Translations under genes and position numbers: made by a program
The notes under the pieces: model-generated
What the model was told of the DNA's origin: nothing
Databases searched by the model: none
The model's input: only the letters and a program-made list of their open reading frames with translations
In this document: positions 6,155 through 31,840 of the stretch, piece after piece
Numbering within the stretch: the stretch's first letter is position 1
Layout: each line of letters opens with the position of its first letter
Assembly: GCA_028286505.1 (NCBI GenBank)
Contig: JAQBRK010000002.1
Coordinates: forward strand, 1 to 36,524
DNA length: 36,524 nucleotides
Reading direction: 5' to 3'
Source of the DNA: Parcubacteria group bacterium
GTDB lineage: Bacteria; Patescibacteriota; Minisyncoccia; Phycocordibacterales; Phycocordibacteraceae

Positions 6155-6871
6155 GTGGCAAACCCCCATAAGCAACAGGCGATAGCGTTTCGACGAGAAG
6201 GTAAAAGTTATCGCGAAATACGAGCACTTTTACCCGTCGCCAAGTCGACTTTGTCGGAATGGTTTAAATCGGTCGAACTGGCCGTGCCGCAGAAGCAACG
6301 AATGACCACCCTACGTCGCGAGGCCGCATTACGCGGAGCGCATGCACGAAGAGATACACGTCTCTTACAAATCCAGAAATTGAATGAGGATGGCAAAAGA
6401 GACATTGGAAAATTAACGGATCGTGAGCTTTGGCTTATTGGTACCGCGCTTCACTGGGCCGAAGGTTCGAAACAGAATATGCGGTCACCAAGCGCGGGGA
6501 TAATGTTTGGAAATTCCGATCACCGTATGCTTTCGGTATTTCTGGCATGGCTACACAGCCAAGGTATTGAAAGGAAAGATATATTTGTTGAGCTCTATAT
6601 CCATATCGAAAGAAGAAAAGATACTGAGAAGTTTAAAACGTGGTGGTCGGAGAAACTGGATATATCGATCGAAAATCTAGACAGAGTTTATTATAAGAAA
6701 GGAAATCCAAAGACAAATCGCGGCAATGTTACTGACTTGTACCATGGTCTATTACGGATTAAAGTGAGGTCAAGCACAACCCTTAACAGACAAGTGAATG
6801 GCTGGATAGAGGGTATTGTAGCTTCCTTGGGAGATCGTCTAATGGTCGGACAAACGCCTTTGAAGCGTTGA
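6155..6871 (+). CDS. HTH-domain protein with LAGLIDADG-like endonuclease motif (tentative)
   Basis: The N-terminal 'GKSYREIRALLPVAKSTLSEWFK' resembles a Hin/resolvase-type HTH. 'ELWLIGTALHWAEGSK' resembles a LAGLIDADG motif. The GTG start lies 6 nt after TATACT (6143-6148). The ORF has no stop until 44 nt inside the tRNA-Gln gene. Confidence 0.45.
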   Translation: MANPHKQQAIAFRREGKSYREIRALLPVAKSTLSEWFKSVELAVPQKQRMTTLRREAALRGAHARRDTRLLQIQKLNEDGKRDIGKLTDRELWLIGTALHWAEGSKQNMRSPSAGIMFGNSDHRMLSVFLAWLHSQGIERKDIFVELYIHIERRKDTEKFKTWWSEKLDISIENLDRVYYKKGNPKTNRGNVTDLYHGLLRIKVRSSTTLNRQVNGWIEGIVASLGDRLMVGQTPLKR

Positions 6872-6898
6872 ATCTAGGTTCGATCCCTAGTCTCCCAG
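6828..6898 (+). tRNA. tRNA-Gln (anticodon UUG)
   Basis: Hand-folded cloverleaf. Acceptor TGGGAGA/TCTCCCA, D stem GTCT/GGAC with a GG loop, anticodon stem AACGC/GCGTT with loop CT-TTG-AA, and T arm CTAGG-TTCGATC-CCTAG. U1-A72 and discriminator G match bacterial tRNA-Gln. No CCA is encoded. Confidence 0.9.
6884..6898 (+). repeat. Direct repeat copy 1 (3' end of tRNA-Gln)
   Basis: TCCCTAGTCTCCCAG is identical to 7038-7052. Confidence 0.85.
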
Positions 6899-7037
6899 CA
6901 AAAGGTGCGGCGCAGCTTTTGCTGTGGAGAAGCGAACGTGGGACGTTCGCGTCTAGAGATCGAAAATGTTGCGAGCATTTTGCGGTGCAAAATCAGCAAT
7001 GTGTACTGCTCCTGTAAGGAGAGATAGTGTAATCACG

Positions 7038-7465: not shown

Positions 7466-7526
7466 TGTCTGGACAAAACCTAACACATGTTGCAAAAAGG
7501 TTCCAACATCGTCCCAGACGGCCAGC
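7466..7526 (-). repeat. Island intergenic module copy 1 (full core, short distal arm)
   Basis: The minus strand reads GATGTTGGAACCTTTTTGCAACATGTGTTAGGTTTTGTCC. TTGGAA is at 7506-7501, followed by an 18-bp spacer and TG-T-TAGGTT (hexamer 7482-7477). The distal arm is TTCCAACATCGTCCCAGACGGCCAGC. Confidence 0.8.
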
Positions 7527-7545
7527 AATATTGTAAACTTTAAGT

Positions 7546-8241
7546 ATGCGCGACTTACGAATTTTCAAGCGAGGTACATCTGAGCTTAAAAGAATTGTTC
7601 TTACATTCGATGACGGACCGAATCCATATGCCACTCCCGAAATTCTCGACATTCTTAGGCGAGAAAATTGCAAAGCCGCCTTCTTTCTTATAGGAGACAG
7701 GGCTGAAAGCTATCCGGAGATAGTTAAACGAATAGTCGATGAGGGGCACACCATTGGCGGGCACACGCAGAAACACGGAGGCTCAGACGGAAAAGAACCG
7801 TACCATGAGTTCCTTCTTGGTAATCGATCAATAGAGAAGATTAGCAGGAAGCCTGTTCACTACATTCGCGTGCCACAACTCATGTATAACGCGGTTGATA
7901 ACGGCATACCTCGAGTCAAAGAATTGTATGAACAACCTTTACGGGAAAAAAACCTACGGAACGAAATTATCGTAGCCGATTGCTCGATCATCACTCACGA
8001 TTGGTTCATCCGCATCCCTATATGGCTCATGCTTCTAAAAGTGAAAATACAGCTTCATAACGGAGCAATCATCAATATGCATGACGGAAGCGAGAACACA
8101 TCTGAATTAAAAACCCGTGCGGTTCGAACGGTGCGTATGCTACCGACCCTTATTCAACAGATTCGTGCTCGCGGGTTCGAGATAGTGGACATTTCAGAGC
8201 TGGAGCCAGTGTTTATAGTCAAGGAAATTCGTACCCTCTAG
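7546..8241 (+). CDS. Polysaccharide deacetylase (NodB/CE4 family)
   Basis: 'LTFDDGPNPYATPEILDIL' and 'HTIGGHTQKH' are NodB motifs. TAAACT at 7534-7539 lies 6 nt before the ATG. Confidence 0.85.
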   Translation: MRDLRIFKRGTSELKRIVLTFDDGPNPYATPEILDILRRENCKAAFFLIGDRAESYPEIVKRIVDEGHTIGGHTQKHGGSDGKEPYHEFLLGNRSIEKISRKPVHYIRVPQLMYNAVDNGIPRVKELYEQPLREKNLRNEIIVADCSIITHDWFIRIPIWLMLLKVKIQLHNGAIINMHDGSENTSELKTRAVRTVRMLPTLIQQIRARGFEIVDISELEPVFIVKEIRTL

Positions 8242-8306
8242 CCAAGAAGGTTCCAACCCAGCACCAAAGGATATTGGTACTGGACAGGCATCGTCCTGGT
8301 AGCCAG
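8241..8306 (-). repeat. Island intergenic module copy 2 (truncated: distal arm with hairpin insert only)
   Basis: GCCAAGAAGGTTCCAACCCAGCACCAAAGGATATTGGTACTGGACAGGCATCGTCCTGGTAGCCAG. It starts at the stop codon of the deacetylase gene, and the promoter-like half is missing. Confidence 0.75.
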
Positions 8307-8325
8307 TAAGCTTTAGTATGCAAAA

Positions 8326-8347
8326 GCGCGGATGTTTCCATCCGCGC
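8326..8347 (-). terminator. Intrinsic terminator of the 8355-8780 gene
   Basis: GCGCGGATG-TTTC-CATCCGCGC followed by TTTTGC on the minus strand. Confidence 0.75.
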
Positions 8348-8354
8348 CTGCTCG

Positions 8355-8780
8355 CTACATCAGTGAAACTGTCAGATCGAGGTAAGGACCGAGGGCCATA
8401 CCATCGTGCCGATACCACTCGACCTTCATTGTTCGAACCGACTTCTTGCCCCAGGGCACTTCGACCTCAAGACGCACGGCCTCGCGATACTTCCATACCG
8501 CCTTGTGAATCTCAGTCAGAAGCCTGTCTTGGGCGTCCCACCTGAGCTGCATGAAGGTGAGTGCGAGTTCGGTGTGAGTGAAGGCCACGCCATTGGGTTT
8601 CGGCTCCTCAGTCTTCAAGCGCTCCTGCCACTCATCGAACTTCGGTCGTTTATGGATATTGTAGGTAAGACCCGGAAGTGTGCGGTGGAAGACATCGTTA
8701 ATATCTCCGAGCAGTCCAGGGAATTCCCTCAAAAGCTCGGCCAAGGTGCACTTGGCGATAGCTGCTGTCTCGATTCTCAT
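8355..8780 (-). CDS. Hypothetical protein (141 aa)
   Basis: The ATG at 8780 is preceded by GGAG with a 7-nt spacer (GGAGATTGAAAATG). It has its own canonical promoter at 8857-8885. No domain recognised. Confidence 0.6.
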   Translation of the reverse strand: MRIETAAIAKCTLAELLREFPGLLGDINDVFHRTLPGLTYNIHKRPKFDEWQERLKTEEPKPNGVAFTHTELALTFMQLRWDAQDRLLTEIHKAVWKYREAVRLEVEVPWGKKSVRTMKVEWYRHDGMALGPYLDLTVSLM

Positions 8781-8856
8781 TTTCAATCTCCGTTCCTGAC
8801 TCTTGCAGAGATACCCGGGGACTACGCCATCAGGAAGATCTTGGGCATCCGAAAGG

Positions 8857-8896
8857 ATTTAACATTAAATAATGTTATCTGTCAAAGACAGATAAC
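8857..8896 (-). promoter_or_regulatory. Canonical promoter overlapped by two perfect palindromes
   Basis: The minus strand reads TTGACA (8885-8880), a 17-bp spacer, then TTAAAT (8862-8857). The palindromes are TAACATTA-AA-TAATGTTA (8860-8877) and GTTATCTGTC-AAA-GACAGATAAC (8874-8896). Confidence 0.65.
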
Positions 8897-8986
8897 AGGG
8901 TCATTACGGTTACAACATGGTTCTATCAGCGTTCTCGTTACTTTTTAAGAGCTAATAGCATCCTAACCGTTCAGCGAAAAACAGAA

Positions 8987-9021
8987 AATCGCCTACGGGA
9001 GACGATTCTCCGTAGGCGATT
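8987..9021 (-). terminator. Long hairpin terminator overlapping the stop of the 8993-9262 gene
   Basis: AATCGCCTACGGGAGA-CGAT-TCTCCGTAGGCGATT forms a stem of about 15 bp with one bulge. TTCTGTTTTT follows on the minus strand. Confidence 0.7.
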
Positions 9022-9262
9022 TACTCTCGCCCCAACGCCTGAATTTTGCAGCATCGCTACCGAAGTAGACGATGTGGCGTTCTTTTCCGCATCCCGGACA
9101 TTGGTGAGCATCGGGCCCAAGCATCTTTTGTGGGTCATGCTCCCACACGCATCTATACTCAGGGCATCTGTGCTTATGCGTTCGGCGAGGGCGAAATGCA
9201 CCTGCGCCATACAGGGTGGCTACAAATGTTATGAGCACCGCAAGTGCGACAAAATACCACAT
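8993..9262 (-). CDS. Small membrane-anchored zinc-ribbon-like protein (89 aa)
   Basis: The ATG at 9262 is preceded by AGGAGG. N-terminal TM 'WYFVALAVLITFVATLYGAGAF'. Cys pairs CPEYRC and CPGCG. Confidence 0.55.
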   Translation of the reverse strand: MWYFVALAVLITFVATLYGAGAFRPRRTHKHRCPEYRCVWEHDPQKMLGPDAHQCPGCGKERHIVYFGSDAAKFRRWGESKSPTENRLP

Positions 9263-9274
9263 CGATATTCCTCC

Positions 9275-9320
9275 TGGACAGAACCTATCACAAGCTGCAG
9301 AAAGGTTCCAACCCGGCACC
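9275..9320 (-). repeat. Island intergenic module copy 3 (full core, distal arm broken inside the hairpin)
   Basis: The minus strand reads GGTGCCGGGTTGGAACCTTTCTGCAGCTTGTGATAGGTTCTGTCC. TTGGAA is at 9311-9306, followed by an 18-bp spacer and TG-A-TAGGTT (9287-9282). Confidence 0.8.
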
Positions 9321-9362
9321 GAGATCCAGCGAGTTTAAGGTAAAAGACGATATACTGGGGAA

Positions 9363-9800
9363 ATGGCGATCAAGAGATTGGACCACATCAGCGTCGTCGT
9401 TGACGACCTTATAACCGCTACCGATTTTTTCACCGCGCTCGGCATGACGCGCGAAGGCGAGGCGTCGGTCGAGGGCCCGTGGGTGGACCGCGTGAACGGA
9501 CTCGAAGGCGTTCAAGCCGATATCGTTATGATGCGGACCCCGGACGGGCACGGGCGGCTTGAGCTAACGAAGTTTCGCAATCCAAAACTGATCGAGATCG
9601 AGCCGGCGATCATACCGCCGAACGCGCTGGGCCTTCGAAGCGTCATGTTCACCGTCGACAACGTCAATGACGCCGTCGCGCGCATGGGCGCCTACGGCGC
9701 CGAACTTATCGGCGAAGTGGTTGAATACGAGAACCTGTACAGGCTGTGCTATGTGCGGGGTCCGGGAGGCATCATCGTATCGTTGGCCGAGGAACTCTAA
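9363..9800 (+). CDS. VOC/glyoxalase-bleomycin resistance family protein
   Basis: 'IKRLDHISVVVDDLITATDFFTALGM' is a typical VOC N-terminus. TATACT at 9351-9356 lies 6 nt before the ATG. Confidence 0.85.
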   Translation: MAIKRLDHISVVVDDLITATDFFTALGMTREGEASVEGPWVDRVNGLEGVQADIVMMRTPDGHGRLELTKFRNPKLIEIEPAIIPPNALGLRSVMFTVDNVNDAVARMGAYGAELIGEVVEYENLYRLCYVRGPGGIIVSLAEEL

Positions 9801-9858
9801 ATAACGGTTCCGGCGCGAGATGCGTCGATCCGAAAGCGCTCCGTAACAAACAAGCATA

Positions 9859-10263
9859 ATGTCAAAACAAGTCATCATAAATCTACCGGTCAAAGACCGC
9901 GAGATATCAAAGGAATTCTTTACTGCCATGGGGCTTTCACTTGATGCCGAACTTACCGACGAAAACGCCCTATGCTTCGTCGTACTTGAGAACGTTATCG
10001 TTGCGCTGTTGCCCGAACCTCATTTTAAAGAAGCATCCATGGGAGAAGTCGCCGATGCCGCGAAGGTAAATGAAATGCTTATCTCAATCGGGACCGATAG
10101 CAGGGAAGAAGTGAATTCATTGGTCGATAATGCCCTTAAAGCCGGGGGTTCGGAGCTGCACGAGCCTGCGGATATGGACACAATATATGGTCGAAGTTTC
10201 GCCGACCTCGACCACCACAAGTGGAACGTCTTTTATATGCGTGACAGTAAAACCGTAAGTTAG
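9859..10263 (+). CDS. VOC/glyoxalase-like family protein
   Basis: 'INLPVKDREISKEFFTAMGL' and the C-terminal 'YGRSFADLDHHKWNVFYM' are typical of small glyoxalase-fold proteins. Confidence 0.7.
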   Translation: MSKQVIINLPVKDREISKEFFTAMGLSLDAELTDENALCFVVLENVIVALLPEPHFKEASMGEVADAAKVNEMLISIGTDSREEVNSLVDNALKAGGSELHEPADMDTIYGRSFADLDHHKWNVFYMRDSKTVS

Positions 10264-10286
10264 TCGTACAAACTTTGGATAGGCGC

Positions 10287-10322
10287 TATATACAGGCTCC
10301 AACATCGTCCCAGACTGCAAGC
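10287..10322 (-). repeat. Island intergenic module copy 4 (degenerate core, short distal arm)
   Basis: TATATACAGGCTCCAACATCGTCCCAGACTGCAAGC. The distal arm is well conserved, but the promoter-like half is degenerate and abuts the VOC gene stop. Confidence 0.7.
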
Positions 10323-10343
10323 TTTCGGAATATACTTAATGCT

Positions 10344-10940
10344 ATGAAACCAGAGATAGAAGTTAAGTTCCTCGCCGTGGACCATGACGACATGAGAAAA
10401 AAACTTCAGAAGCTAGGTGCAAAATGTACCGCACCCATGCGTCTCATGAAGCGAGTAATACTTGATTTTCCCGACCGGCGACTCCAGAAAGGCGAGCATA
10501 ATTCCTTCGTGCGCGTTCGAGATGAGGGCGACAAGATTACGCTCACGTTCAAGCAATTCAAATCACGCACGGTCGATGGCGCTTACGAGACAGAGACAAT
10601 CGTGAAATCGTTTGACGATACCGTTAACATATTTACATCGATAGGCCTGGAAGTCGTCTCGTTCCAGGAATCAAAAAGGGAAACGTGGGCATATGGAGAT
10701 TATGAAATAGTACTCGATGAGTGGCCGTGGCTTGAGCCTTATATTGAGATAGAGGGTGAATCTGAGGACGGCCTTAGATCGATCGCCGTTGAACTTGGAT
10801 TACATTGGGTCGACGCGGTATTTGGCGGAGTCATGAGAGCCTACCGAGTCCAGTATCCCAATACGGAACCGCACGAAGCCATCGGAAACATGGCAGAAGT
10901 TCGGTTCGGCGCACCACCACCGGACTTCTTGCGAAGCTAA
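10344..10940 (+). CDS. CYTH-domain protein (CyaB/ThTPase-like)
   Basis: The N-terminal 'MKPEIEVKFL' carries the ExExK signature. TATACT at 10331-10336 lies 7 nt before the ATG at 10344, so the longer ORF from 10275 is rejected. Confidence 0.8.
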   Translation: MKPEIEVKFLAVDHDDMRKKLQKLGAKCTAPMRLMKRVILDFPDRRLQKGEHNSFVRVRDEGDKITLTFKQFKSRTVDGAYETETIVKSFDDTVNIFTSIGLEVVSFQESKRETWAYGDYEIVLDEWPWLEPYIEIEGESEDGLRSIAVELGLHWVDAVFGGVMRAYRVQYPNTEPHEAIGNMAEVRFGAPPPDFLRS

Positions 10941-10966
10941 TAACTAAGGCTACCTGTACCAAACAG

Positions 10967-11003
10967 AAGCACCCAGCGGATGGGTGCTTTCCGCTGGGTG
11001 CTT
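10967..11003. terminator. Bidirectional terminator with alternative pairings
   Basis: AAGCACCCAGCGG (10967-10979) pairs with CCGCTGGGTGCTT (10991-11003). The loop contains a second GGGTGCTT copy that can pair instead. It lies between convergent genes. Confidence 0.65.
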
Positions 11004-11012
11004 ACCCAAAGT

Positions 11013-11216
11013 CTAAATCCTGTTAGCGATGATCTGGGCGGCGAGTGAATAAGGCTGACCGGCCTCCCGGTTCTTCTCGGCCTGATCATGGGCCTCGCGC
11101 AAGCGATCATTGAGGTTTCCCAGCGTACCTACCAGATGCGTGCCGGACGCATTGATGAGCTTGCCTTGGGCGTCGTAGTAATGCCAAAGGATGACACAAT
11201 CGACTTCGTGGGACAT
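11013..11216 (-). CDS. Hypothetical small protein (67 aa)
   Basis: The ATG at 11216 is preceded by AAGGAG. The upstream part of the 99-aa ORF lies over the conserved non-coding module. Confidence 0.5.
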   Translation of the reverse strand: MSHEVDCVILWHYYDAQGKLINASGTHLVGTLGNLNDRLREAHDQAEKNREAGQPYSLAAQIIANRI

Positions 11217-11230
11217 GTCCCGACTCCTTC

Positions 11231-11310
11231 TGTCTAGACAGAACCTATCACGTGTTGCAGAAAGGTTCCAACCCGGCACCAAGGGATATTGGTGTTGGGC
11301 AGGCATAGTC
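11231..11310 (-). repeat. Island intergenic module copy 5 (full core, long distal arm with hairpin)
   Basis: The minus strand reads GGTGCCGGGTTGGAACCTTTCTGCAACACGTGATAGGTTCTGTCTAG. TTGGAA is at 11271-11266, followed by an 18-bp spacer and TG-A-TAGGTT (11247-11242). The hairpin is at 11272-11299. Confidence 0.8.
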
Positions 11311-11312
11311 AA

Positions 11313-11338
11313 GCAAAAGGACCTCCCGAAGGAGGCCC
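11313..11338 (-). terminator. Terminator of the Fis-type HTH gene
   Basis: The minus strand reads GGGGCCTCC-TTCG-GGAGGTCC followed by TTTTGC. The stem has one mismatch. Confidence 0.65.
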
Positions 11339-11371
11339 CATTCCATCGTCTTATTCCACAGAAAAGCCTAT

Positions 11372-11584
11372 TTACCCTTCGGGTGCCGGCCTCCTGAATT
11401 TCTTCTCGTTCATTTTGCGATAGAGCGTGCTTCTACCGATCTTAAGACCCCAGGCGGTCTCGCTCATGTTGCCCTGGCTCTTCGTTATGGCGAATTGGAT
11501 TATCTCGTACTCAAGGTCGTCCATGGAACGAAGTTCGCCGTGCGCATCAAGAAGCTGCAGCACGCCTTCTGGTGAATCCGACAT
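11372..11584 (-). CDS. Small Fis-type helix-turn-helix DNA-binding protein (70 aa)
   Basis: The C-terminal 'GNMSETAWGLKIGRSTLYRKMNE' matches the Fis/NtrC-type HTH. The ATG at 11584 lies 7 nt after GGAGG. Confidence 0.7.
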   Translation of the reverse strand: MSDSPEGVLQLLDAHGELRSMDDLEYEIIQFAITKSQGNMSETAWGLKIGRSTLYRKMNEKKFRRPAPEG

Positions 11585-11620
11585 ATGCAAGCCTCCAAGA
11601 TTGATTGTGTGCGTAACCCT

Positions 11621-11675
11621 GGAGAACGTACCACGTATTGTATAAAGGTCCCAACATCGTTCCAGTCAGTCAGCC
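11621..11675 (-). repeat. Island intergenic module copy 6 (full but diverged core, short distal arm)
   Basis: The minus strand reads GATGTTGGGACCTTTATACAATACGTGGTACGTTCTCC. TTGGGA is at 11654-11649, followed by an 18-bp spacer and TG-G-TACGTT (11630-11625). Confidence 0.75.
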
Positions 11676-11740
11676 ATTATTTATTTTCAGACGAGCATGT
11701 CCATGTGTATACTTTGAACATTAACTAATGAATTACTCGT

Positions 11741-20311: not shown

Positions 20312-21076
20312 TTACAGACCGAGAGATTCGAGGAAGATAGCGAGTTCCTTTCCGTCGAGGCGCCGGTAGGCGCCGGGCGCGAGCTTGCCGAGTTCGATGT
20401 TCATGATGCGAACGCGACGGAGATCCTGCACTTCGTTGTGCATCGCAACCACCATGCGACGGATCTGATGCTTCTTACCTTCGGTGATGGTAATGCGGAA
20501 GCGTTGGTCAGCGAGCACTTCCACTTTCGAGGCCTTCGTGAGGTAGCCTTCGATATCCACGCCCTTCTCCATATATTCCGCAAACGAAGCGCGTAGCGGC
20601 ATCTTCGTCGTTACCTCGTAGGTTTTCTCATGGTCGTAGGCCGGGTTCAAAAGGCGATCGGTGATACGGCCGTCGTTCGTGAGCAGAAGCAGTCCCGACG
20701 AGGCCTTATCAAGGCGACCGAGCGGAAAGAGCTTGAGGCGCTTCAAGTCGCTCGGAAGCATGTCGAGAACATCCTTCTCTCCTTTCTCTTCGGATTGCGT
20801 AATGAGGTCCTTCGGCTTATGGAAGGCGAGATACACATAGCTCTTGGGTGCACGGCCTTTTACCTCAACGGTATCAGTCTCGAGGACCTTGTCGCCGAGC
20901 TTGGCTTTCACGCCGTTCAAGAACACCTGACCTTTCTCTATGATGGTATCGGCTTCGCGACGGGTAGCGTGGCCCTTATGCGCTAGGAATTTGTTGATGC
21001 GCATGGGAAATACCGCCTCGATACTTTGAGGCGGCTTCGTATCTTTCATCTTCTTGCGGCGTGGAGGAGGGGGCAT
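20312..21076 (-). CDS. Pseudouridine synthase, RsuA/RluB family (S4 domain plus catalytic domain)
   Basis: S4 domain 'RINKFLAHKGHATRREADTIIEKGQVFLNG' and the catalytic 'PLGRLDKASSGLLLLTNDG'. TATAGT (minus strand, 21090-21085) lies 8 nt before the ATG at 21076. Confidence 0.9.
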   Translation of the reverse strand: MPPPPRRKKMKDTKPPQSIEAVFPMRINKFLAHKGHATRREADTIIEKGQVFLNGVKAKLGDKVLETDTVEVKGRAPKSYVYLAFHKPKDLITQSEEKGEKDVLDMLPSDLKRLKLFPLGRLDKASSGLLLLTNDGRITDRLLNPAYDHEKTYEVTTKMPLRASFAEYMEKGVDIEGYLTKASKVEVLADQRFRITITEGKKHQIRRMVVAMHNEVQDLRRVRIMNIELGKLAPGAYRRLDGKELAIFLESLGL

Positions 21077-21161
21077 CGTTTCATACTATAGGGTTCGCGT
21101 CGGATTTGATAGGGATTGGGAGCGTGGTATAACGGTGCCTGGCAGCGAGAAAGGACACGCG

Positions 21162-21680
21162 ATGAGCCGAGCATGGAATTTTCGCGGCTTCCTGGAAGGA
21201 TGCGATCGCGATTTCGGAACCTTCATTCTGCGAGATATTACGGAGACGACCGATGGCGAACTGGTGTGCAAGATCAAGACCACGTTCATGCGAAAGCTCT
21301 ATGACGAGGAGGAACTGGAATGCGGCTTCTTCGCCTCCTGGAATCCCGAATTCGGCGTACTGAAGTTCTTGTACCGCATCAATACTCAAATTCACGCCAA
21401 TTGGTACGGTCAAGTACTTGAGTTCCTAAATACGAACACGCCGGAGCTCCCTTTGGCGCTTGCCGCGACCATTGAAGTTCCGTTTGAGGATAATGAAGAT
21501 CTTCAAATCCAATTGGCTTGCAGGTGGTCATTAGCCTTCAATCCTGCAGTATTCGGACGTCCGCTTACGAAGGTCGCTCTGCAGACCCTCATCCAAAAAA
21601 ATTTGACGCGCTTATGCGCTGAATCCATCCAACTGTACATGGAACTGATGAAAGCCATTTCCTCGTATAGCGAGCATTAA
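21162..21680 (+). CDS. Hypothetical protein (172 aa)
   Basis: The ATG at 21162 is preceded by AAAGGA, 7 nt upstream. The upstream ORF extension overlaps the divergent rsuA-like start region. No confident domain. Confidence 0.5.
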   Translation: MSRAWNFRGFLEGCDRDFGTFILRDITETTDGELVCKIKTTFMRKLYDEEELECGFFASWNPEFGVLKFLYRINTQIHANWYGQVLEFLNTNTPELPLALAATIEVPFEDNEDLQIQLACRWSLAFNPAVFGRPLTKVALQTLIQKNLTRLCAESIQLYMELMKAISSYSEH

Positions 21681-21684
21681 GCCG

Positions 21685-21706
21685 GGGCCGCCTTCTTAGG
21701 CGGCCC
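21685..21706 (+). terminator. Intrinsic terminator
   Basis: GGGCCGCC-TTCTTA-GGCGGCCC followed by TTTG. Confidence 0.75.
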
Positions 21707-21711
21707 TTTGC

Positions 21712-21799
21712 TATACCCCTTACCACTTTTAGATACAGTTATAGGTGCGGAGCGTACGACTGAGGAGAAGGTTCTCAGTAGAAAGTGGTAAGGGGTATA
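21712..21799. repeat. Inverted-repeat element copy 1 (18-bp arms, 52-bp centre)
   Basis: TATACCCCTTACCACTTT (21712-21729) and AAAGTGGTAAGGGGTATA (21782-21799) are perfect complements. The right arm ends in TATACT (21796-21801), 6 nt before the ATG at 21808. Confidence 0.9.
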
Positions 21800-21807
21800 C
21801 TCCACAT

Positions 21808-22041
21808 ATGAAAATACCTCCGGGCCTCTACCACCACTACAAGGACAAGACGAAGCTCTACGACGTGATGGGGGTAGCCTTCCAGACCGAGACCGAAGAG
21901 GAACTCGTCGTGTACCGACCGCTGTATGAGGTTGAGCATGAGTTTTTTGCTCGCCCGCTTGCCATGTTCCTTGAGAACGTCGACGTGCCCGAGCTCGGAT
22001 ATTCCGGCCCACGCTTCGTATTCGTCCGCGAGAAGCAATAA
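21808..22041 (+). CDS. DUF1653-like small protein (77 aa)
   Basis: 'YHHYKDKTKLYDVMGVAFQTETEEELVVYRPLY...FARPLAMF' matches the DUF1653 pattern, judged from memory. The start was chosen downstream of the non-coding inverted repeat. Confidence 0.7.
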   Translation: MKIPPGLYHHYKDKTKLYDVMGVAFQTETEEELVVYRPLYEVEHEFFARPLAMFLENVDVPELGYSGPRFVFVREKQ

Positions 22042-22103
22042 AAGGCTCCTAATCTGGGGAAAACCCCGAATAGTCGATTGCGCTCCACGGCGGGCGGGCT
22101 ACC

Positions 22104-22394
22104 ATGGGGGGACGGATGAGCGAATTTCTCAAGATGGACATTTTCTTCGTGGTGACAACCGTCGCCGTCGTTGTCATGACTATCCTCTTGGCGCTATGCC
22201 TCATTCGCGTGCTTCGGATACTTAAGAACATCGAAGACATATCGGTACTGGTAGAAGAGGAAGGTCAGAAGTTCCGCGAAGACATTGCCGACGTTCGCAA
22301 GAGCGTCCGCGAGGAAGGTCTGCGCGCAAAGCACCTCCTCAGCTTTCTCGGTACCGGTAAACGCCGTTCCCGGAAAAAATCCGATAGCGCCTAA
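22104..22394 (+). CDS. Small single-TM protein with a charged helical tail
   Basis: TM 'IFFVVTTVAVVVMTILLALCLI' followed by a charged helix. The start is uncertain (22104, 22116 or 22134). Confidence 0.5.
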   Translation: MGGRMSEFLKMDIFFVVTTVAVVVMTILLALCLIRVLRILKNIEDISVLVEEEGQKFREDIADVRKSVREEGLRAKHLLSFLGTGKRRSRKKSDSA

Positions 22395-22416
22395 CAGTAA
22401 TTTTCAAAACAGATCT

Positions 22417-22911
22417 ATGGCCACTACGAAGAAACAGACAGCTAAGAAAGCAACCGGCACGAAGAAGACTTCGAAGAAGGGTATGTCCACCGCAACGAAG
22501 GTAGAGGTAGGTGCAGCAGCACTCGCTGCAGCTGCAGCAGCAGGAGCCGCGGGGTATTACTTCTATGGCACGAAGAGCGCGAAGAAGCATCGTCAGGCGG
22601 CAAGCACGTGGGCAAAGGGCATGAAGCGCGACGTGGTGAAGAAGGCGAAGGCCATCAAGAACCTCGACGCAAAGTCCATCGCGCGTATCGTTGACGAAGC
22701 AGCAGCTGCTTACCAGGGAGTACGCGGCGTTGCCGCAAGCGACCTCGGTCACGCGGCGCTTGAGCTCAAGCGCAACTGGAAGGAAGTACAGCGCGAGCTC
22801 GAACCGTCGGCTACGGTGAAGAAGAACGTGAAAAAGGTACAGACCACGGTTAAGAAGACGGTCGGCAAAGTAATGCCGAAGAAGACTGCCAAAAAGTCTT
22901 CGAAGCGTTAG
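22417..22911 (+). CDS. Lysine-rich YtxH-like protein (164 aa)
   Basis: Lys-rich ends and an Ala/Gly hydrophobic segment 'GAAALAAAAAAGAAGYYFYG'. The ATG at 22417 is preferred over the upstream extension. Confidence 0.6.
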   Translation: MATTKKQTAKKATGTKKTSKKGMSTATKVEVGAAALAAAAAAGAAGYYFYGTKSAKKHRQAASTWAKGMKRDVVKKAKAIKNLDAKSIARIVDEAAAAYQGVRGVAASDLGHAALELKRNWKEVQRELEPSATVKKNVKKVQTTVKKTVGKVMPKKTAKKSSKR

Positions 22912-22929
22912 CCCAAGTCCTCAAAGTTC

Positions 22930-22967
22930 GAAACAGTACGGTCTCCGCGAGGAGACCGTACTGTTTC
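22930..22967 (+). terminator. Strong intrinsic terminator (17-bp stem)
   Basis: GAAACAGTACGGTCTCC-GCGA-GGAGACCGTACTGTTTC. Confidence 0.8.
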
Positions 22968-23007
22968 GTTAACGCTCGCTTCACCTTGCTCCGAGTATAA
23001 GTAAGGA

Positions 23008-23673
23008 ATGTTCAGAAACCCCGCCTACGATATGTTCGTTCTTGTTCCCGCACTTTTGATTGCGGCCGTCCTCACGCTCACTATTATGGGAAGTTCCGTG
23101 CACGCTCAGGAGATTGTTACCAGCTCTGCCGTACCGGCAAGCGTTTCAGCACCTGCAAACACGACCGCCACGAGCACTGGATCGCGTGCAACTATCGCTT
23201 CAACGAGCGGCACGACGCTTCCTGATAGTGCGGGAAAAGTCCTGAGCATTACCCGCACGGCAGTTACCACGACGCCCTCGGACGTTCCCGAACTTTCACC
23301 CGTAGGTATTCATACGTCGGATGAGCTGTATTCGTATGCAAAAACATTGATGCAAAAGAACGCCTCGATAGAAACCATTACGCTCTCGGGAACCGAAGTT
23401 TCAGTACGTTATCACCGGAATGCCCGCCTGCTCGGCATACTTCCCGTATCGGTGCCCGGTACCGTATCGGTCCGCACCGACGGCAGCGTGAGCTTTTCTA
23501 ACCCGTGGTACCGCATGCTTACGATAGCCGAACGTGATTACCTCACTACGGCGCTTGAAGTGCGGGTGCACTCGCTGCTTACCTCCGAAGGGTATCTCGC
23601 CTCCATGCACCTCGCTCCTTCGACCCAAGCCGAACTCCTTGCCACCATCACCGAACTTCTCTCAGGTGTATAG
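23008..23673 (+). CDS. Secreted/anchored Ser/Thr-rich protein, paralog of 18145-18903
   Basis: N-terminal hydrophobic segment, an S/T/A-rich region, and a shared block 'VSVRYHRNARLLGILPVSVPGTVSVRTDGSVSFSNPWYRML'. TATAAG at 22996-23001 lies 6 nt before the ATG. Confidence 0.7.
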   Translation: MFRNPAYDMFVLVPALLIAAVLTLTIMGSSVHAQEIVTSSAVPASVSAPANTTATSTGSRATIASTSGTTLPDSAGKVLSITRTAVTTTPSDVPELSPVGIHTSDELYSYAKTLMQKNASIETITLSGTEVSVRYHRNARLLGILPVSVPGTVSVRTDGSVSFSNPWYRMLTIAERDYLTTALEVRVHSLLTSEGYLASMHLAPSTQAELLATITELLSGV

Positions 23674-23768: not shown

Positions 23769-24275
23769 ATGGATAACGAAGAAAACAAAGATCATTTTCT
23801 CGAGGTCTACGACCGGTACTCGGACGATATCTTCCGCTTTTGCGTCCTTAAAGTAAGCAGCCGTGCGGTGGCCGAAGATCTCACCCAAGAGGTCTTCATG
23901 CGCTTCTGGCAGCAGCTGCGCGCCGGGACCGAAATAGGCAACGAGCGGGCCCTCCTCTATGCCATGGCACGCAATCTGGTCATTGACTGGTACCGCAAGC
24001 GAAAAGAGCAATCGCTCGATATGCTGCAGGAAGAGGGATTCGAGTTCGCGAACGACGACCACACGAGCATCAAGCGAAATGCCGAAATGCGAGAAGTGCT
24101 CGACGTTATCAAAGACCTCGACGAGCCTTCGCGCGAAGCCCTGACGCTACGCTTCGTCGAGGGATTCTCCCCGATGGAAATAGCGGCACTCTCGGGGGAG
24201 ACCGCGAACGCGGTGTCGGTGCGCATCAACCGCGCCCTCAAAAAAGTCCAAGAACACCTACACGTCCATGATTGA
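23769..24275 (+). CDS. ECF-type RNA polymerase sigma-70 factor
   Basis: Region 2 'AEDLTQEVFMRFW' and 'LYAMARNLVIDWYRKR'. Region 4 'EIAALSGETANAVSVRINRALKKV'. Confidence 0.9.
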   Translation: MDNEENKDHFLEVYDRYSDDIFRFCVLKVSSRAVAEDLTQEVFMRFWQQLRAGTEIGNERALLYAMARNLVIDWYRKRKEQSLDMLQEEGFEFANDDHTSIKRNAEMREVLDVIKDLDEPSREALTLRFVEGFSPMEIAALSGETANAVSVRINRALKKVQEHLHVHD

Positions 24276-25311
24276 TTCAACTACCACATTTATCAAACGA
24301 CTTGCCGGCATCCGGCTTTCGAATAATGAACGCCTCGCGCTCCGCGAGCGCCTCAGCATGTACGCCGACCAACACCCGGCGCCTGTTCCTGCGAGCATCC
24401 CTTCGCCGTTCGGAACCTTTTTCATAGCACTTGGTTCTCGCCGCTTCTCTACCTATGCCATGGCTCTCGCGGTGCTCATTGTCGCAACGAGCGGCGTTAC
24501 GTTCGCTGCCGAAGGCAGCGTTCCCGGCGACTCACTCTATTCCATCAAGGTGAAAGTGAACGAGCCGGTCATGGTAGCTCTCGCTCCCACCGCCACCGGC
24601 CAAGCGAACGTCGCGGCGCGTATCGCGACCCGTCGCGTCGATGAAGCGGTAACTCTCGCCACGCGCGGAGAACTAACCCCCGAGCGCCAGGCATACCTCG
24701 CGACCGAATTCGATTCGAGCGTGAAAATTGCCGCACAGAAAGCCGATGACCTTGCGTCTTCCGGCGACGTAACGAGCGCCGCGAACGTGAAGGCGAACCT
24801 TGCGGCGAACCTCGCGGGAGAAGCGCAGGCGCTCGGTGCGGTCGCTACCGTTCCGGGAGAAGTACGCAATAACGATTTCCTTGCCGTAGTCGTTGCCACG
24901 AGCGAAAGCATCTCGAGCACGAGCGGCTCCGATACGAGCAGTGCCGCTATCGCGGCAGGCATAAGCGAATCCGCATCAGACTCCGAAGAGGGAACCACGA
25001 CCGCACTGCTCATGGAGCAATCCAGCGCTCCTGCTTCGGCGCGCACCATGCTTAAGGCCGCAACGCTCGCGCCGGTAGCCTCAACAACACCGCTCAAGGC
25101 GAAGCGTGCATTTATCACTGGCCGTTTCGGCAGCACGTTCAACCTCGCTTCCTCCACGCTGCGTGCCCGTCTCGCAGCACCCGCACTCTCCAATTTCCTC
25201 GTACCCAAGATGGATGTCGCCATCCCGAAAGTACCTCAAACGATGGCACCCGAGGCAGTCGTCAATTCCGAAACAACAACCTCCGGTTCAAACTCGCCCG
25301 ATACGAAATAA
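24268..25311 (+). CDS. Anti-sigma-like membrane protein with an extracytoplasmic DUF5667-like domain (tentative)
   Basis: Overlaps the sigma gene stop by 8 nt. TM 'YAMALAVLIVATSGVTFA', then 'GDSLYSIKVKVNE...ARIATRRVDEA'. The C-terminal half is low-complexity and Ala/Ser-rich. Confidence 0.65.
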   Translation: MIDSTTTFIKRLAGIRLSNNERLALRERLSMYADQHPAPVPASIPSPFGTFFIALGSRRFSTYAMALAVLIVATSGVTFAAEGSVPGDSLYSIKVKVNEPVMVALAPTATGQANVAARIATRRVDEAVTLATRGELTPERQAYLATEFDSSVKIAAQKADDLASSGDVTSAANVKANLAANLAGEAQALGAVATVPGEVRNNDFLAVVVATSESISSTSGSDTSSAAIAAGISESASDSEEGTTTALLMEQSSAPASARTMLKAATLAPVASTTPLKAKRAFITGRFGSTFNLASSTLRARLAAPALSNFLVPKMDVAIPKVPQTMAPEAVVNSETTTSGSNSPDTK

Positions 25312-28992: not shown

Positions 28993-29102
28993 GTATACCC
29001 CTTACCACTTTCGGCAGAAATGCGTCATGCGATACGGAACGGCAGCGAAAGAAGGAAAGTTTCCAACAGGCTAGCGAAGAGTGAAAGTGGTAAGGGGTAT
29101 AC
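28993..29102. repeat. Inverted-repeat element copy 2 (19-bp arms, 72-bp centre)
   Basis: GTATACCCCTTACCACTTT (28993-29011) and AAAGTGGTAAGGGGTATAC (29084-29102) are perfect complements. The right arm ends in TATACT (29097-29102), 8 nt before the ATG at 29111. Confidence 0.9.
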
Positions 29103-29110
29103 TTGACCCT

Positions 29111-31840
29111 ATGGAGGGACCGTTACGGCCACTCGGGAATCCCGAGGACGAACTGGCATATCTGCGTGCGCAGGTTGCTCAGAAGGAGGCGGAGCTCGCA
29201 GTAATGCGAGAGTCTCCTGCGCGCGAAGAAGTTGCGCATGAGCGTCTGGTGAGTCACCGCACGGCGCCCGAAGCCGTACTTACCCCCGAATATCGCATCA
29301 CTTCGGAAGTTGCGCGCGACCTTGCGAAGGGTCTCGACCCGGAGCAGAACGACGAGACGATAAAGGAACTTCGTCAGATAATGGAGGAGAAGGGAATCAA
29401 GAACGCGTTCACGGTTCTTGAGCGCCTGAATAGTCCGCATCTCGAAGACGATTTCCACCGCTTTCTGGTGCAGTACCTGCTTTCCGGTATGTCCATATCG
29501 GGACTCCCAGAAGGACAGCCTGCCTGGAAGGCACTGCGCATGACGCTCTATGAAATCGCGCTTCCGGAACCTGACGCAGGGGACGACCCGAATACGCGCA
29601 CCAAGCACCTCAAAGAAATAATTTCCGCGATGGAGCAATTCTATTCGGGCATGCTCTCGGTGGAACACGCTGACCCCAAGGAGCCCGCGTACTTTACGCT
29701 CGAGCTCGCCGTAGCGGTGAATTCCCCGACGCTCCAGTTCTATGCCGCCGTACCCAACGGCAAGCGAGACCTGTTCGAGAAGCAGTTGCTCGCGATATTT
29801 CCCGATGCACGCGTTGCCGCGCAACCGAACGACTACAACATATTCACGGAAGACGGCTCAGCTATAGGCTCCTACGCGACCCTCAAGGACCGTCCCATGC
29901 TTCCTCTCAAGGATTACGCCGACTTCGACTATGACCCTATCAACTCGATTCTTAACGCCTTCTCGAAAATCGCTCCGGAAGGAGAAGGGGCATCGCTCCA
30001 GATACTCATCAAGCCCACAGGACACCGCTACGTCGAGCATTACCGCCGCATACTTGCCGAACTGCGTAAGGGTGAGAACCGCTACAAGGCGTTCAATCTT
30101 CCCGAAACATTCGTGGGCGACCTCGCGCGCGAAGCGTTCAGTCTGCTGGGCTCTTCTAAGAAACCACTTGACCCGAACCAGGCTGATAAGGTCGCCATCG
30201 AGCAGCTCGAGAAGAAAATAATGGCCCCCATCGTCGAAACGAATATCCGTATCGTCGTATCGTCCCAAGACCCTTCCCGCGCGCTTTCCATACGTTCCGA
30301 ACTTGAGGCGTCATTCAATCAATTCGAGAACACGATAGGCAACCGACTTTCATTCAAGGAGGTCGCAAAGAACGACGCGAAGAAACTATTTCATAATTTT
30401 ACCTTCCGATTATTCTCGGCTTCGAGCGCGCTTGCGCTTTCGCTTCGCGAACTCACCACCATCTATCACTTCCCACCGAAGGGCATCGAATCCTCGCCGC
30501 ATCTCGCGCAGTCGCGCTTCACCTCGGCACCCGCTCCTGCGGTACTGCCGTCACAAGGTCTTACGCTCGGAACGAACGACTATCGCGGTGCGAAGACCGA
30601 CGTGAAGCTCACGCCGCTCGACCGCATGCGTCACCTCTACACCATCGGGCAAACCGGTACGGGAAAGACGTCGTTCATGAAAACGCTGATTGCCCAAGAT
30701 ATCGCCAACGGCGAGGGAGTCTGCTTCATCGATCCGCACGGCACCGACATTCTGGACGTGCTCTCGTTCATCCCGCCTGAGCGCTACGAAGACGTCATCT
30801 ACTTCGACCCGGCTGAGATATCACGCCCGTTCGGTCTCAACATGCTCGAATACGACGAAACGAAGCCGGAGCAGAAATCCTTCATCGTGAACGAAATGCT
30901 CGCAATATTCCGTCAGTTGTATGGGGATGTCCCGGAATCGATGGGACCCGCCTTCGAACAGTATTTCCGCAACGCTACACAGCTCGTTATGGAAGACCCG
31001 GCGTCCGGCTCAACCCTCATGGACATCGGTCGCGTGCTTTCCAACAAACCGTTCCGGGACCTCAAGCTCTCGAAGAGTAACAACCCGATCGTCAACCAGT
31101 TCTGGAACGAGATTGCGACCCAGGCAGAAGGGGAAGCGTCACTCGCGAACATCGTTCCGTACATCACGAACAAATTCGATGAGTTCACGGCAAACGACTT
31201 CATGCGTCCGATAATCGGACAGCAGGAATCATCCTTCAAGTTCCGCGACGTCATAGACAACAAGAAGATCCTGCTCGTGAACCTTTCGAAGGGTAGGCTC
31301 GGTGAGCGCAATGCGAACCTCCTCGGTCTCATTTTGGTTGGCAAGCTCTTCATGGCAGCGCTTTCCCGTGCCGATAATCCGAGAGGCGACTTCGCTCCGT
31401 TCTATCTGTACATCGACGAATTCCAGAACATCACGACGGATTCCATTCCCGGAATTCTTTCAGAAGCCCGCAAATACAAGCTATCGCTCACCATCGCGCA
31501 CCAGTTCCTTTCGCAGATAGACGAGAAGATACGGGATGCCGTGTTCGGTAACGTGGGTTCCATGGCCATTTTCCGCGTGGGACAAGAAGACGGCGAATTC
31601 TTCGAGAAGCAGTTCGCGCCGGTGTTCAAAGCAGGCGATTTCACTTCCATCGAAAATTACAACGCGTATGTAAAAATTCTGGCAGAAGGCGTGCCGCAGA
31701 AGCCGTTCAATATCCATTCGCTTCCGCCGGTTGCAGGCGACAAGGACCAGATCGACGACTTGCGAGAGCTTTCCTATCTCACCTATGGACGTGACCGTGC
31801 TACAGTTGAAGCATCAATACGAGCTCGTTATCTTTCCTAA
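29111..31840 (+). CDS. Type IV coupling protein-like (VirD4/TraD-type) ATPase with a large N-terminal domain of unknown function
   Basis: Walker A 'GQTGTGKTS' and Walker B 'FYLYIDEFQN', then 'ARKYKLSLTIAHQFLSQ'. No hydrophobic TM segment was seen. The ATG at 29111 is preferred to the GTG at 29081, because the GTG would make the inverted repeat coding. Confidence 0.8.
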   Translation: MEGPLRPLGNPEDELAYLRAQVAQKEAELAVMRESPAREEVAHERLVSHRTAPEAVLTPEYRITSEVARDLAKGLDPEQNDETIKELRQIMEEKGIKNAFTVLERLNSPHLEDDFHRFLVQYLLSGMSISGLPEGQPAWKALRMTLYEIALPEPDAGDDPNTRTKHLKEIISAMEQFYSGMLSVEHADPKEPAYFTLELAVAVNSPTLQFYAAVPNGKRDLFEKQLLAIFPDARVAAQPNDYNIFTEDGSAIGSYATLKDRPMLPLKDYADFDYDPINSILNAFSKIAPEGEGASLQILIKPTGHRYVEHYRRILAELRKGENRYKAFNLPETFVGDLAREAFSLLGSSKKPLDPNQADKVAIEQLEKKIMAPIVETNIRIVVSSQDPSRALSIRSELEASFNQFENTIGNRLSFKEVAKNDAKKLFHNFTFRLFSASSALALSLRELTTIYHFPPKGIESSPHLAQSRFTSAPAPAVLPSQGLTLGTNDYRGAKTDVKLTPLDRMRHLYTIGQTGTGKTSFMKTLIAQDIANGEGVCFIDPHGTDILDVLSFIPPERYEDVIYFDPAEISRPFGLNMLEYDETKPEQKSFIVNEMLAIFRQLYGDVPESMGPAFEQYFRNATQLVMEDPASGSTLMDIGRVLSNKPFRDLKLSKSNNPIVNQFWNEIATQAEGEASLANIVPYITNKFDEFTANDFMRPIIGQQESSFKFRDVIDNKKILLVNLSKGRLGERNANLLGLILVGKLFMAALSRADNPRGDFAPFYLYIDEFQNITTDSIPGILSEARKYKLSLTIAHQFLSQIDEKIRDAVFGNVGSMAIFRVGQEDGEFFEKQFAPVFKAGDFTSIENYNAYVKILAEGVPQKPFNIHSLPPVAGDKDQIDDLRELSYLTYGRDRATVEASIRARYLS

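Follow-up and report, generated by a model that had tools for sequence, protein, structure and literature searches.

Paired inverted repeats at two leaderless promoters of a Parcubacteria genome probably belong to a family of small palindromic mobile elements with GIY-YIG-bearing relatives

Introduction

Bacterial miniature inverted-repeat transposable elements (MITEs), such as the Correia elements (CREE) of Neisseria, are small, non-coding and multicopy, carry terminal inverted repeats, are flanked by target-site duplications and often lie by promoters or gene starts. In this study we analyse a 36,524-nt stretch of DNA from a Parcubacteria group bacterium (contig JAQBRK010000002.1; the whole stretch is hereafter called the window), in which a pair of perfect inverted repeats stands directly before each of two genes, one encoding a DUF1653 protein and the other an ATPase. 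An earlier note on this DNA had proposed that the right arm of each pair supplies the -10 box of the gene behind it. Our analysis indicates that the repeats are very probably two copies of a non-autonomous, MITE-like family of palindromic mobile elements of Parcubacteria/Kaiserbacteria-type bacteria of the candidate phyla radiation (CPR), and that both copies lie in -10 boxes older than the repeats themselves. The family is apparently an undescribed, tiny mobile element of these ultra-small bacteria.

Several other described systems share features with this family. Rickettsia palindromic elements (RPEs) are selfish palindromes that persist inside protein-coding genes as in-frame insertions. 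Repetitive extragenic palindromes (REPs) and their doublets (REPINs), which go with the REP-associated tyrosine transposases (RAYTs) of the HUH Y1 type, are short palindromic doublets with conserved arms and a drifting spacer that keeps its pairing. Homing genes of the GIY-YIG type (I-TevI type, Seg/Mob) resemble the full-length relatives described below in that a GIY-YIG open reading frame (ORF) sits in a highly conserved target, here the G^FTLIE codons of prepilins (the caret marks a cut or junction throughout), and inteins and introns resemble them in that removal of the insert would make the insertion phenotypically silent. In the CPR itself, small GIY-YIG ORFs have been found inside non-intron insertions in rRNA genes (PMC11270868).

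Results

Two elements and their flanking duplications in the window

The 18-mer TATACCCCTTACCACTTT occurs exactly at 21712-21729 (+), 21782-21799 (-), 28994-29011 (+) and 29084-29101 (-), which bears out the arm pairs previously placed at 21712-21799 and 28993-29102. Its chance expectation is zero in 100 dinucleotide-preserving shuffles even with 3 mismatches, and the window holds no fifth copy with up to 3 mismatches, no degenerate site and none of the variant arms of the family. The centre between the arms measures 52 nt at locus 1; the perfect arms of locus 2 reach 20 nt (28993-29012 and 29083-29102) with 70 nt between them, or 72 nt when they are counted as 19-mers, so that both centre lengths given before (52 and 72 bp) are confirmed. 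The element proper is CCCCTTACCACTTT…AAAGTGGTAAGGGG, 80 bp long at 21716-21795 and 100 bp long at 28998-29097, and the TATA on either side of it is a 4-bp target-site duplication. The features of both loci are as follows.

21712-21715 (no strand): left target-site duplication TATA of locus 1, in line with the direct TNNA repeats around CCCC...GGGG family-wide
21716-21729 (+): left terminal inverted repeat CCCCTTACCACTTT of element 1, matching the family consensus exactly
21730-21781 (no strand): centre of element 1, 52 nt, copy-specific by similarity comparison, with a CTGAG-N9-CTCAG hairpin
21782-21795 (+): right terminal inverted repeat AAAGTGGTAAGGGG of element 1, an exact arm match
21796-21801 (+): TATACT, the -10 box that the leaderless DUF1653 gene already had; 21796-21799 is the right copy of the duplication
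21808-22041 (+): DUF1653 gene, 77 aa (PF07866, E 1.5e-17), starting 6 nt past the -10 box
28994-28997 (no strand): left target-site duplication TATA of locus 2, from the family flanks and the empty orthologous sites
28998-29012 (+): left terminal inverted repeat CCCCTTACCACTTTC of element 2, an exact arm match
29013-29082 (no strand): centre of element 2, 70 nt, copy-specific by similarity comparison, with a GGAAA-G-TTTCC hairpin
29083-29097 (+): right terminal inverted repeat GAAAGTGGTAAGGGG of element 2, an exact arm match
29098-29103 (+): TATACT, the -10 box that the leaderless ATPase operon already had; bases one to four double as the right copy of the duplication
29111-31840 (+): DUF8128/DUF87/TraG-D_C ATPase gene, 909 aa, starting 7 nt past the -10 box

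The two TATACT boxes therefore stand within the 6-8 nt of an ATG that had been noted, and the genes behind them are the DUF1653-like gene and the ATPase resembling a type IV coupling protein that had been recognised there. The ATG at 29111 is the true ATPase start, because about 120 homologues share its length at 100% coverage. In both boxes the last two bases (CT) fall outside the inverted repeat; the distal TATA runs into upstream sequence as TATAGC or TATACG and is no promoter. The centres carry the small internal palindromes listed above and, as had been remarked, do not align: they resemble neither each other nor other long centres of the family nor the GIY-YIG gene described below, similarity being not above that of shuffles. 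An Rfam scan of the window returned tRNA-Gln only, with no known RNA family at the elements, and the single match in a sigma-70 scan of both loci was a weak TTCTCA-18-TATACT at locus 1.

Copies in other genomes are flanked by TNNA duplications

A first scan for TATACCCCTTACCACTTT, covering one genome per species, found it in about 20 loci of about 10 CPR metagenome-assembled genomes (MAGs), for example in seven contigs of Kaiserbacteria GW2011_GWA2_52_12, and also gave about 10 single chance matches in unrelated phyla; viral contigs lacked it. At the CPR loci the motif is nearly always an inverted pair with arms usually 5-10 nt and sometimes 54-84 nt apart, and TATACT-N6-9-ATG stands on one side of the pair. 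The nearest proteins and the motif-bearing contigs belong to Parcubacteria, Minisyncoccia and Kaiserbacteria MAGs. A second scan of metagenome contigs, unbiased as to flanks, used CCCCTTACCAC-N6-36-GTGGTAAGGGG; its matches and the earlier loci together list 82 elements, 81 of them non-redundant, as one locus (L031; retrieved loci are cited by L numbers, proteins by P numbers) is the window itself. Arm spacing across the family ranges from 5 to 84 nt, and most centres are 3-10 nt long. The modal element is 35 bp, with a 15-16-bp stem, a 3-5-nt loop and arms of 14-16 nt, CCCCTTACCACTTT(TC), and in the short copies the inner stem sequence varies yet stays complementary.

The bases just outside CCCC...GGGG form exact 4-nt direct repeats in 29 of the 82 elements, including TTGA, TCAA, TTCA, TTTA, TACA, TAAA and TATA, and some elements show 5-nt repeats (TATAA, TTGAC, TGTAA, TTGTA). 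Many of these duplications are non-palindromic. Where the left 4-mer is non-palindromic (n=58), 12 exact direct repeats were counted against 2 inverted ones, and 2000 permutations of the flanks gave a mean of 1.2 and a maximum of 5 direct repeats. All 28 clean duplications read TNNA, with G at -1 in 19 and C at +1 in 16 of them. The target consensus is therefore G^TNNA^C, of which four base pairs are duplicated. Since the TNNA flanks are direct and often non-palindromic, they are the signature of an insertion and not of an extended palindromic binding site. The earlier suggestion of a TA target duplication must be corrected accordingly, the duplicated unit being the 4-bp TNNA, which happens to read TATA in the window and TTGA, TCAA, TTCA, TTTA, TACA or TAAA elsewhere. 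In all, the family combines terminal inverted repeats around short non-coding DNA (below about 600 bp), a target-site duplication of fixed length, many non-orthologous copies (two in the window and about 80 in other loci) and presence or absence at orthologous sites, as is characteristic of MITEs.

The -10 boxes are older than the elements

The ATPase locus was compared in six distinct relatives, in which the ATPase shares 78-84% amino-acid identity and gene order is kept on both sides. This ortholog comparison, which the earlier note had called for, shows that all six have (g/t)TATACT-N6/7-ATGGAGGG before the ATPase gene and lack the element, with no element arm within 5-22 kb of the locus. 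For example, the promoter in L125 is gtgtcgTATACTaaacgtaATG, and that in the window is aatgtcgTATA[CCCC...GGGG element]TATACTtgaccctATG. Since the spacing from TATACT to the ATG is the same in the six empty relatives, the -10 box is older than the repeat and was not supplied by it, contrary to the earlier proposal. Deleting the element and one TATA in silico turns locus 1 into tttgcTATACTccacatATG and locus 2 into gtcgTATACTtgaccctATG, both normal leaderless promoters; the precise empty-site junctions expected are ...gtcgTATACTtgaccct... and ...tttgcTATACTccacat.... In the three relatives retrieved first (L032, L034 and L035) we found no variant palindromes, only ordinary terminators. An apparent empty site in L105 compared with L066 failed on alignment.

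Most genes of the window have TATACT, TATAGT or TAGAAT 6-8 nt before their ATG and no Shine-Dalgarno sequence, for example the leaderless-type ATG/GTG starts at 27, 6155, 9363, 16936, 19040, 21076 (-), 25348 and 26057. Leaderless mRNAs are apparently the norm for this CPR genome, and since such -10-like boxes are usual in the window, TATACT at this place is an ordinary promoter, repeat or not.

Copies lie in promoters and in coding sequences

Behind the copies lie housekeeping genes that have no relation to one another, among them frr, pyrB, pyrC, scpA, rnhB, prfB, dnaX, secD and an aminoacyl-tRNA synthetase gene. A complete TAnnnT box with a leaderless start codon occurs on one side only in 30 of the 81 elements and on both sides in none, which again speaks against a box supplied by the arms; such one-sidedness is expected if only the gene-proximal TATA keeps the last two bases of the hexamer. 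Eight elements lie in TTGAC(A) -35 boxes with TAnnnT 15-19 nt downstream.

At least 10 elements lie in frame inside coding sequence, mostly in prepilin leaders. Here the 35-nt element plus 4 nt makes an insert of 39 nt, or 13 codons, which reads TPYHFxxKSGKG and stands directly before the G^FTLIE cleavage site of type IV prepilins (L036, L039, L048, L072, L074, L108). In L040 (8567-10700; also in L071 and L089) an in-frame 13-aa insert of the pattern [TI]PYH[FL]xxxS[GD]KG is present in each of four pilin genes in a row and in the neighbouring prepilin peptidase gene, a series that reflects either an extreme GGN-TTY-ACN hot spot or duplication after insertion. A 42-nt, 14-codon insert, consisting of a 38-nt element plus TTTA, lies in frame in an MnmA-like tRNA-modification gene (L061 677-714; …GQRHGF[TPYHFLHQKSGKGF]TAPLYVV…) and is analogous to the RPEs. 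In each of these settings the duplicated TNNA restores the signal that was cut, be it the TATA of a -10 box, the TTGA of a -35 box or the TTYA of the GGN-TTY-ACN codons, and such rebuilding of signals is a plausible reason why the insertions survive in compact genomes.

A separate set of repeats from a low-GC organism (L066 2837-2893, L105 328-385, L107 1392-1448, L114 727-783) has the same 11-nt arm ends. Their centres are long and perfectly palindromic (…AAAAGCC[CA]A[CA]AAAT…), and the copies directly follow a conserved sequence that resembles a structured RNA, GGATGACCGCGTTAGGGATTG…GCGCAGTGGA.CGTAGCACCGAAGCGA. This set may be another subfamily or another phenomenon.

Full-length relatives carry a GIY-YIG ORF

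The same 16-nt arms occur 284-285 nt apart at L074 2546-2829 and L054 385-669, on contigs that also carry short elements. Such full-length elements are about 285-300 bp long, and an ORF of about 95 aa with a GIY-YIG domain (PF01541, E 5.1e-16, 59 bits against a cut-off of 22.6) spans them from repeat to repeat; Pfam also assigns GIY-YIG to P0121-P0127. In L074 and L054 the ORF starts M(AI)TPYHFSYVYIL, ends KSGKG and continues into a pilin (GFTLIE...), the left arm encoding T-P-Y-H-F and the right arm, its reverse complement, K-S-G-K-G. An exhaustive phmmer search gave 387 matches below 1e-10, and among the approximately 170 that were read, 84 cluster representatives show GIY-YIG followed by ...KSG(A/K)G^FTLIE and a pilin body (P0128-P0348). 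Loci with GIY-YIG in the leader are L054 385-669, L074 2546-2829, L111 468-785, L127 314-1012 and L128 814-1265. A GIY-YIG domain in the leader of a type IV pilin-like protein is a widespread architecture in Patescibacteria.

The duplicated junction is also visible at the protein level, as in MERGF^TPYHF...KSDKGF^TFFE and MIGDKQRHGF^TQHHF...KSGAGF^TLIE. Two loci with variant arms have clean duplications, namely L128, TTCA^CCCAGCAACATTTT…AAAATGCTGCTGGG^TTCA, and L127, TTTA^CCCAGCACCACTTTT ... GTGGTGCTGGG^TTTA (left arm also given as CCCAGCACCAC), where a short element is nested in the right-hand duplication. T-P-Y-H-F goes only with KS[GD]KG (13/13) and T[QP]HHF with KSGAG (3/3), a co-variation to be expected of ends that are held to complementarity. 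Between the same or co-varying arms, in elements of 284-298 bp, the only ORF seen is the GIY-YIG nuclease, and no DDE transposase was found. This makes the nuclease, as judged from sequence, the best candidate for the mobilising enzyme. Stand-alone GIY-YIG genes in L022, L039, L047 and L077 have no flanking arms.

Discussion

Taken together, the duplications, the patchy distribution, the empty sites and the many copies support the mobile part of the MITE-like mobile promoter proposed earlier, and the promoter-carrying part of that proposal falls away. According to the mechanism that we suggest, the element inserts at G^TNNA^C and duplicates the four central bases. Each window copy has hit the TATA of a TATACT box that a leaderless gene already possessed. 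Through the duplication, the gene-proximal TATA again forms part of an intact TATACT, spaced from the ATG as before, so that the promoter survives and the insertion is tolerated. The GIY-YIG nuclease of about 95 aa may mobilise the elements, with the window copies as putative non-autonomous derivatives. After insertion both junctions would again read G-TNNA-C, with one flanking base coming from the element, so one nuclease specificity could cut empty targets as well as element ends with a 4-nt stagger. Precise excision and re-insertion by sticky ends might follow, a cut and paste in the style of restriction and ligation. Full-length copies stand in frame at the prepilin G^FT cleavage-site codons, where prepilin peptidase would remove the nuclease-bearing leader and leave the insertion silent. 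It is possible, and we put it forward only tentatively, that these elements represent a new class of prokaryotic DNA transposon whose sole protein is the GIY-YIG protein of about 95 aa, which cuts G^TNNA^C and persists in leader peptides, and whose miniature derivatives are the window copies.

Several observations weigh against this interpretation. About half of the elements have no recognisable duplication, which we attribute to decay or rearrangement, and the full-length copies in L054 and L074 likewise lack a clean one. None of the available relatives exceeds 95% identity, and hence no precise empty site that can be aligned on both flanks was obtained, and BLAST of the reconstructed junctions among the retrieved loci returned filled sites only. 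In two cases the element stands at orthologous genes of different species, namely at an aminoacyl-tRNA synthetase gene (L012 120-153 and L022 3174-3214) and at pyrC (L003 3392-3425 and L023 2654-2691). The centres and flanks of these copies have diverged, which fits either old insertions retained under constraint with conserved arms or repeated hits on the same promoter as a hot spot. As to the nuclease, the window contains no GIY-YIG gene and no pilin gene or motif, and its centres are unrelated to the GIY-YIG gene, which is unusual for MITEs that arise by internal deletion. Most GIY-YIG-pilin fusions (about 70 cluster representatives) start at M[FY]YVY without a left arm, so that the nuclease-in-leader arrangement may be older than, and independent of, the mobile palindromes. 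Characterised GIY-YIG enzymes, moreover, are known to leave 3' overhangs of 1-2 nt and not the 4-nt stagger that our model needs, which makes this part of the model uncertain.

Other explanations were weighed against the same evidence. If the palindrome were an operator, a dimeric regulator bound to it, or an alternative sigma factor reading AAAGTGGTAAGGGG next to the -10 box, would co-control the DUF1653 gene and the ATPase operon as a regulon. The arms are indeed exactly conserved and adjoin -10 boxes in many genomes, the two ortholog pairs just mentioned could be read in the same way, and an extracytoplasmic function (ECF) sigma factor gene and its probable anti-sigma partner lie between the two loci. 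However, the same promoter is free of the element in six relatives with unchanged synteny, the window has no degenerate sites, and the element lies before unrelated genes, within -35 boxes and coding sequences, with arms 5 to 84 nt apart and with direct, partly non-palindromic, TNNA repeats as flanks instead of inverted ones. The family therefore shows neither the orthologous conservation nor the coherent gene set nor the symmetric flanks of a regulon motif, and the paired-operator reading of the earlier note, contradicted on these points, is highly improbable. Special promoter consensus sequences (sigma-B, ECF, sigma-54, T7-like) were dropped in view of the TNNA duplications in unbiased flanks and the empty sites. 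Hardly better, and still very unlikely, is a mobile promoter of the Correia kind, whose outward-directed -10 box would give rise to new promoters at its insertion sites. The right end of each window copy does have TATACT 6-7 nt from an ATG, and about 30 of the 81 copies are alike in this, but the empty orthologous sites already have TATACT at equal spacing, no copy has a functional hexamer and start codon on both sides, and the final CT of the hexamer lies outside the repeat. That the TATA itself is target DNA follows from the flanks of other copies, which read TTGA, TCAA, TTCA and the like.

The remaining two explanations concern the structure of the repeat. The 14-20-bp stem could have been exapted for a role in RNA or DNA, such as stopping read-through from the upstream gene or insulating the promoter by forming a cruciform. 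The stems are predicted to be strong (z -7.3 and -5.3), locus 1 lies just 3' of a co-directional gene and its terminator, and the inner stem of short copies varies with complementarity kept. Yet a hairpin is the trivial outcome of terminal inverted repeats, no T-tract follows the stems, a terminator scan of both loci scored no site, and the genes' own promoters start downstream, so that the element would be transcribed by read-through only; we regard such a function as very unlikely. Inversion of the centre by a recombinase would suit perfect inverted repeats around a unique centre, but no recombinase gene is nearby, most centres of the family are merely 3-10 nt long, and the only other assembly of locus 1 (L031, window 20556-23115, not reaching locus 2) is identical and in the same orientation, which leaves this possibility scarcely credible. 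The identical contig comes from SRR13312974. For neither the invertible segment nor the read-through stem, both raised in the earlier note, did we find positive support.

As a MITE-like mobile family, the palindromes can be compared with the described systems. The Correia elements are the closest analogy for the promoter-proximal copies. The present family differs from Correia/CREE MITEs in its 4-bp TNNA duplication instead of TA, its modal length of 35 bp, the absence of a -10 box brought along, and the GIY-YIG ORF between the arms, no DDE transposase partner having been found. A Correia-like MITE of the IS630/Tc1-mariner type was rejected, since the duplications are 4-nt (TTGA, TCAA, TTCA, TTTA, TACA, TAAA) and not TA. 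The RPEs are 100-150 bp long, unrelated in sequence and from another phylum, with no enzyme known; in our family, insertions into coding sequence favour a leader peptide destined for cleavage, and both window copies lie between genes. REPINs have no target duplication, a GTAG-type 5' motif and RAYT genes, and membership in the REP/REPIN-RAYT group was rejected because in our family a duplication is present and the arms begin with CCCC; no RAYT was noticed in the retrieved loci, among which no systematic search for one was made. The full-length relatives share the GIY-YIG domain with homing genes; however, they have inverted arms and duplications (TTTA/TTTA in L127, TTCA/TTCA in L128), which are not products of gene-conversion homing, and they consist of a catalytic domain of about 80 aa only, with no separate DNA-binding domain. 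Unlike inteins and introns, which splice themselves, the insert here would be removed by the host prepilin peptidase.

Searches of the literature for MITEs of the CPR, on GIY-YIG with inverted repeats or duplications, on GIY-YIG with pilins and on CPR leaderless promoters found no description of the element, in agreement with the earlier statement that no element with this sequence was known. Nor did the searched literature contain a description of GIY-YIG domains in prepilin leaders or a GIY-YIG-based class of prokaryotic transposases. To our knowledge, no recognised prokaryotic transposase class uses a GIY-YIG nuclease. The insertions in CPR rRNA genes come from the same radiation and are likewise non-intron insertions with GIY-YIG ORFs, with rRNA genes as the differing target (PMC11270868). 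The text of that report contains neither "inverted repeat" nor "palindrom"; these insertions may be related to the palindrome family.

For genome annotation, the conserved 14-nt motif beside -10 boxes of these CPR genomes should be read as selfish DNA with a duplicated target and not as a promoter element or operator, and short ORF extensions and the 13-aa TPYHFxxKSGKG inserts in pilins and other proteins as insertions of the element. By duplicating the core of the signal that it interrupts (-10 TATA, -35 TTGA or the G^FT codons), the element illustrates a route by which selfish DNA can persist in extremely compact genomes. The combination of GIY-YIG, inverted repeats and leader-peptide biology is the part likely to surprise specialists. 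If the nuclease does mobilise the elements, it would be a new class of enzyme and an unusually small, potentially useful site-specific nuclease, and cleavage of the leader peptide would be a new route to phenotypic silence for selfish genes. Removal of prepilin leaders would then be a proteolytic analogue of intron or intein splicing.

Other features of the window

The ECF-type sigma factor gene (168 aa) and an overlapping downstream gene, probably encoding an anti-sigma factor, occupy 23769-25311, between both element loci. The pair is syntenic in all relatives and has no evident tie to the elements. A perfect 18-bp palindrome with a 4-nt loop (CGAAACAGTACGGTCTCC/GGAGACCGTACTGTTTCG) at 22929-22968 follows a gene that ends at 22911, and is probably a terminator unrelated to the element family.

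A second repeat family, consisting of direct repeats of about 50-60 nt with the core AAGGTTCCAAC[AC][TC][CG]G..CCA, spans 7469-11677, with copies at 7469-7529, 8247-8295, 9274-9334, 10273-10325, 11234-11310 and 11625-11677. The copies lie upstream of several small genes in a stretch of lower GC content (46-49%) just past tRNA-Gln (6828-6899). As copies of the tRNA-Gln 3' end, that is, as attachment (att) sites, they were tested and rejected, since they do not match the 3' end of the tRNA. A common promoter or operator is one possible reading of these repeats, and an island's recombination site another.

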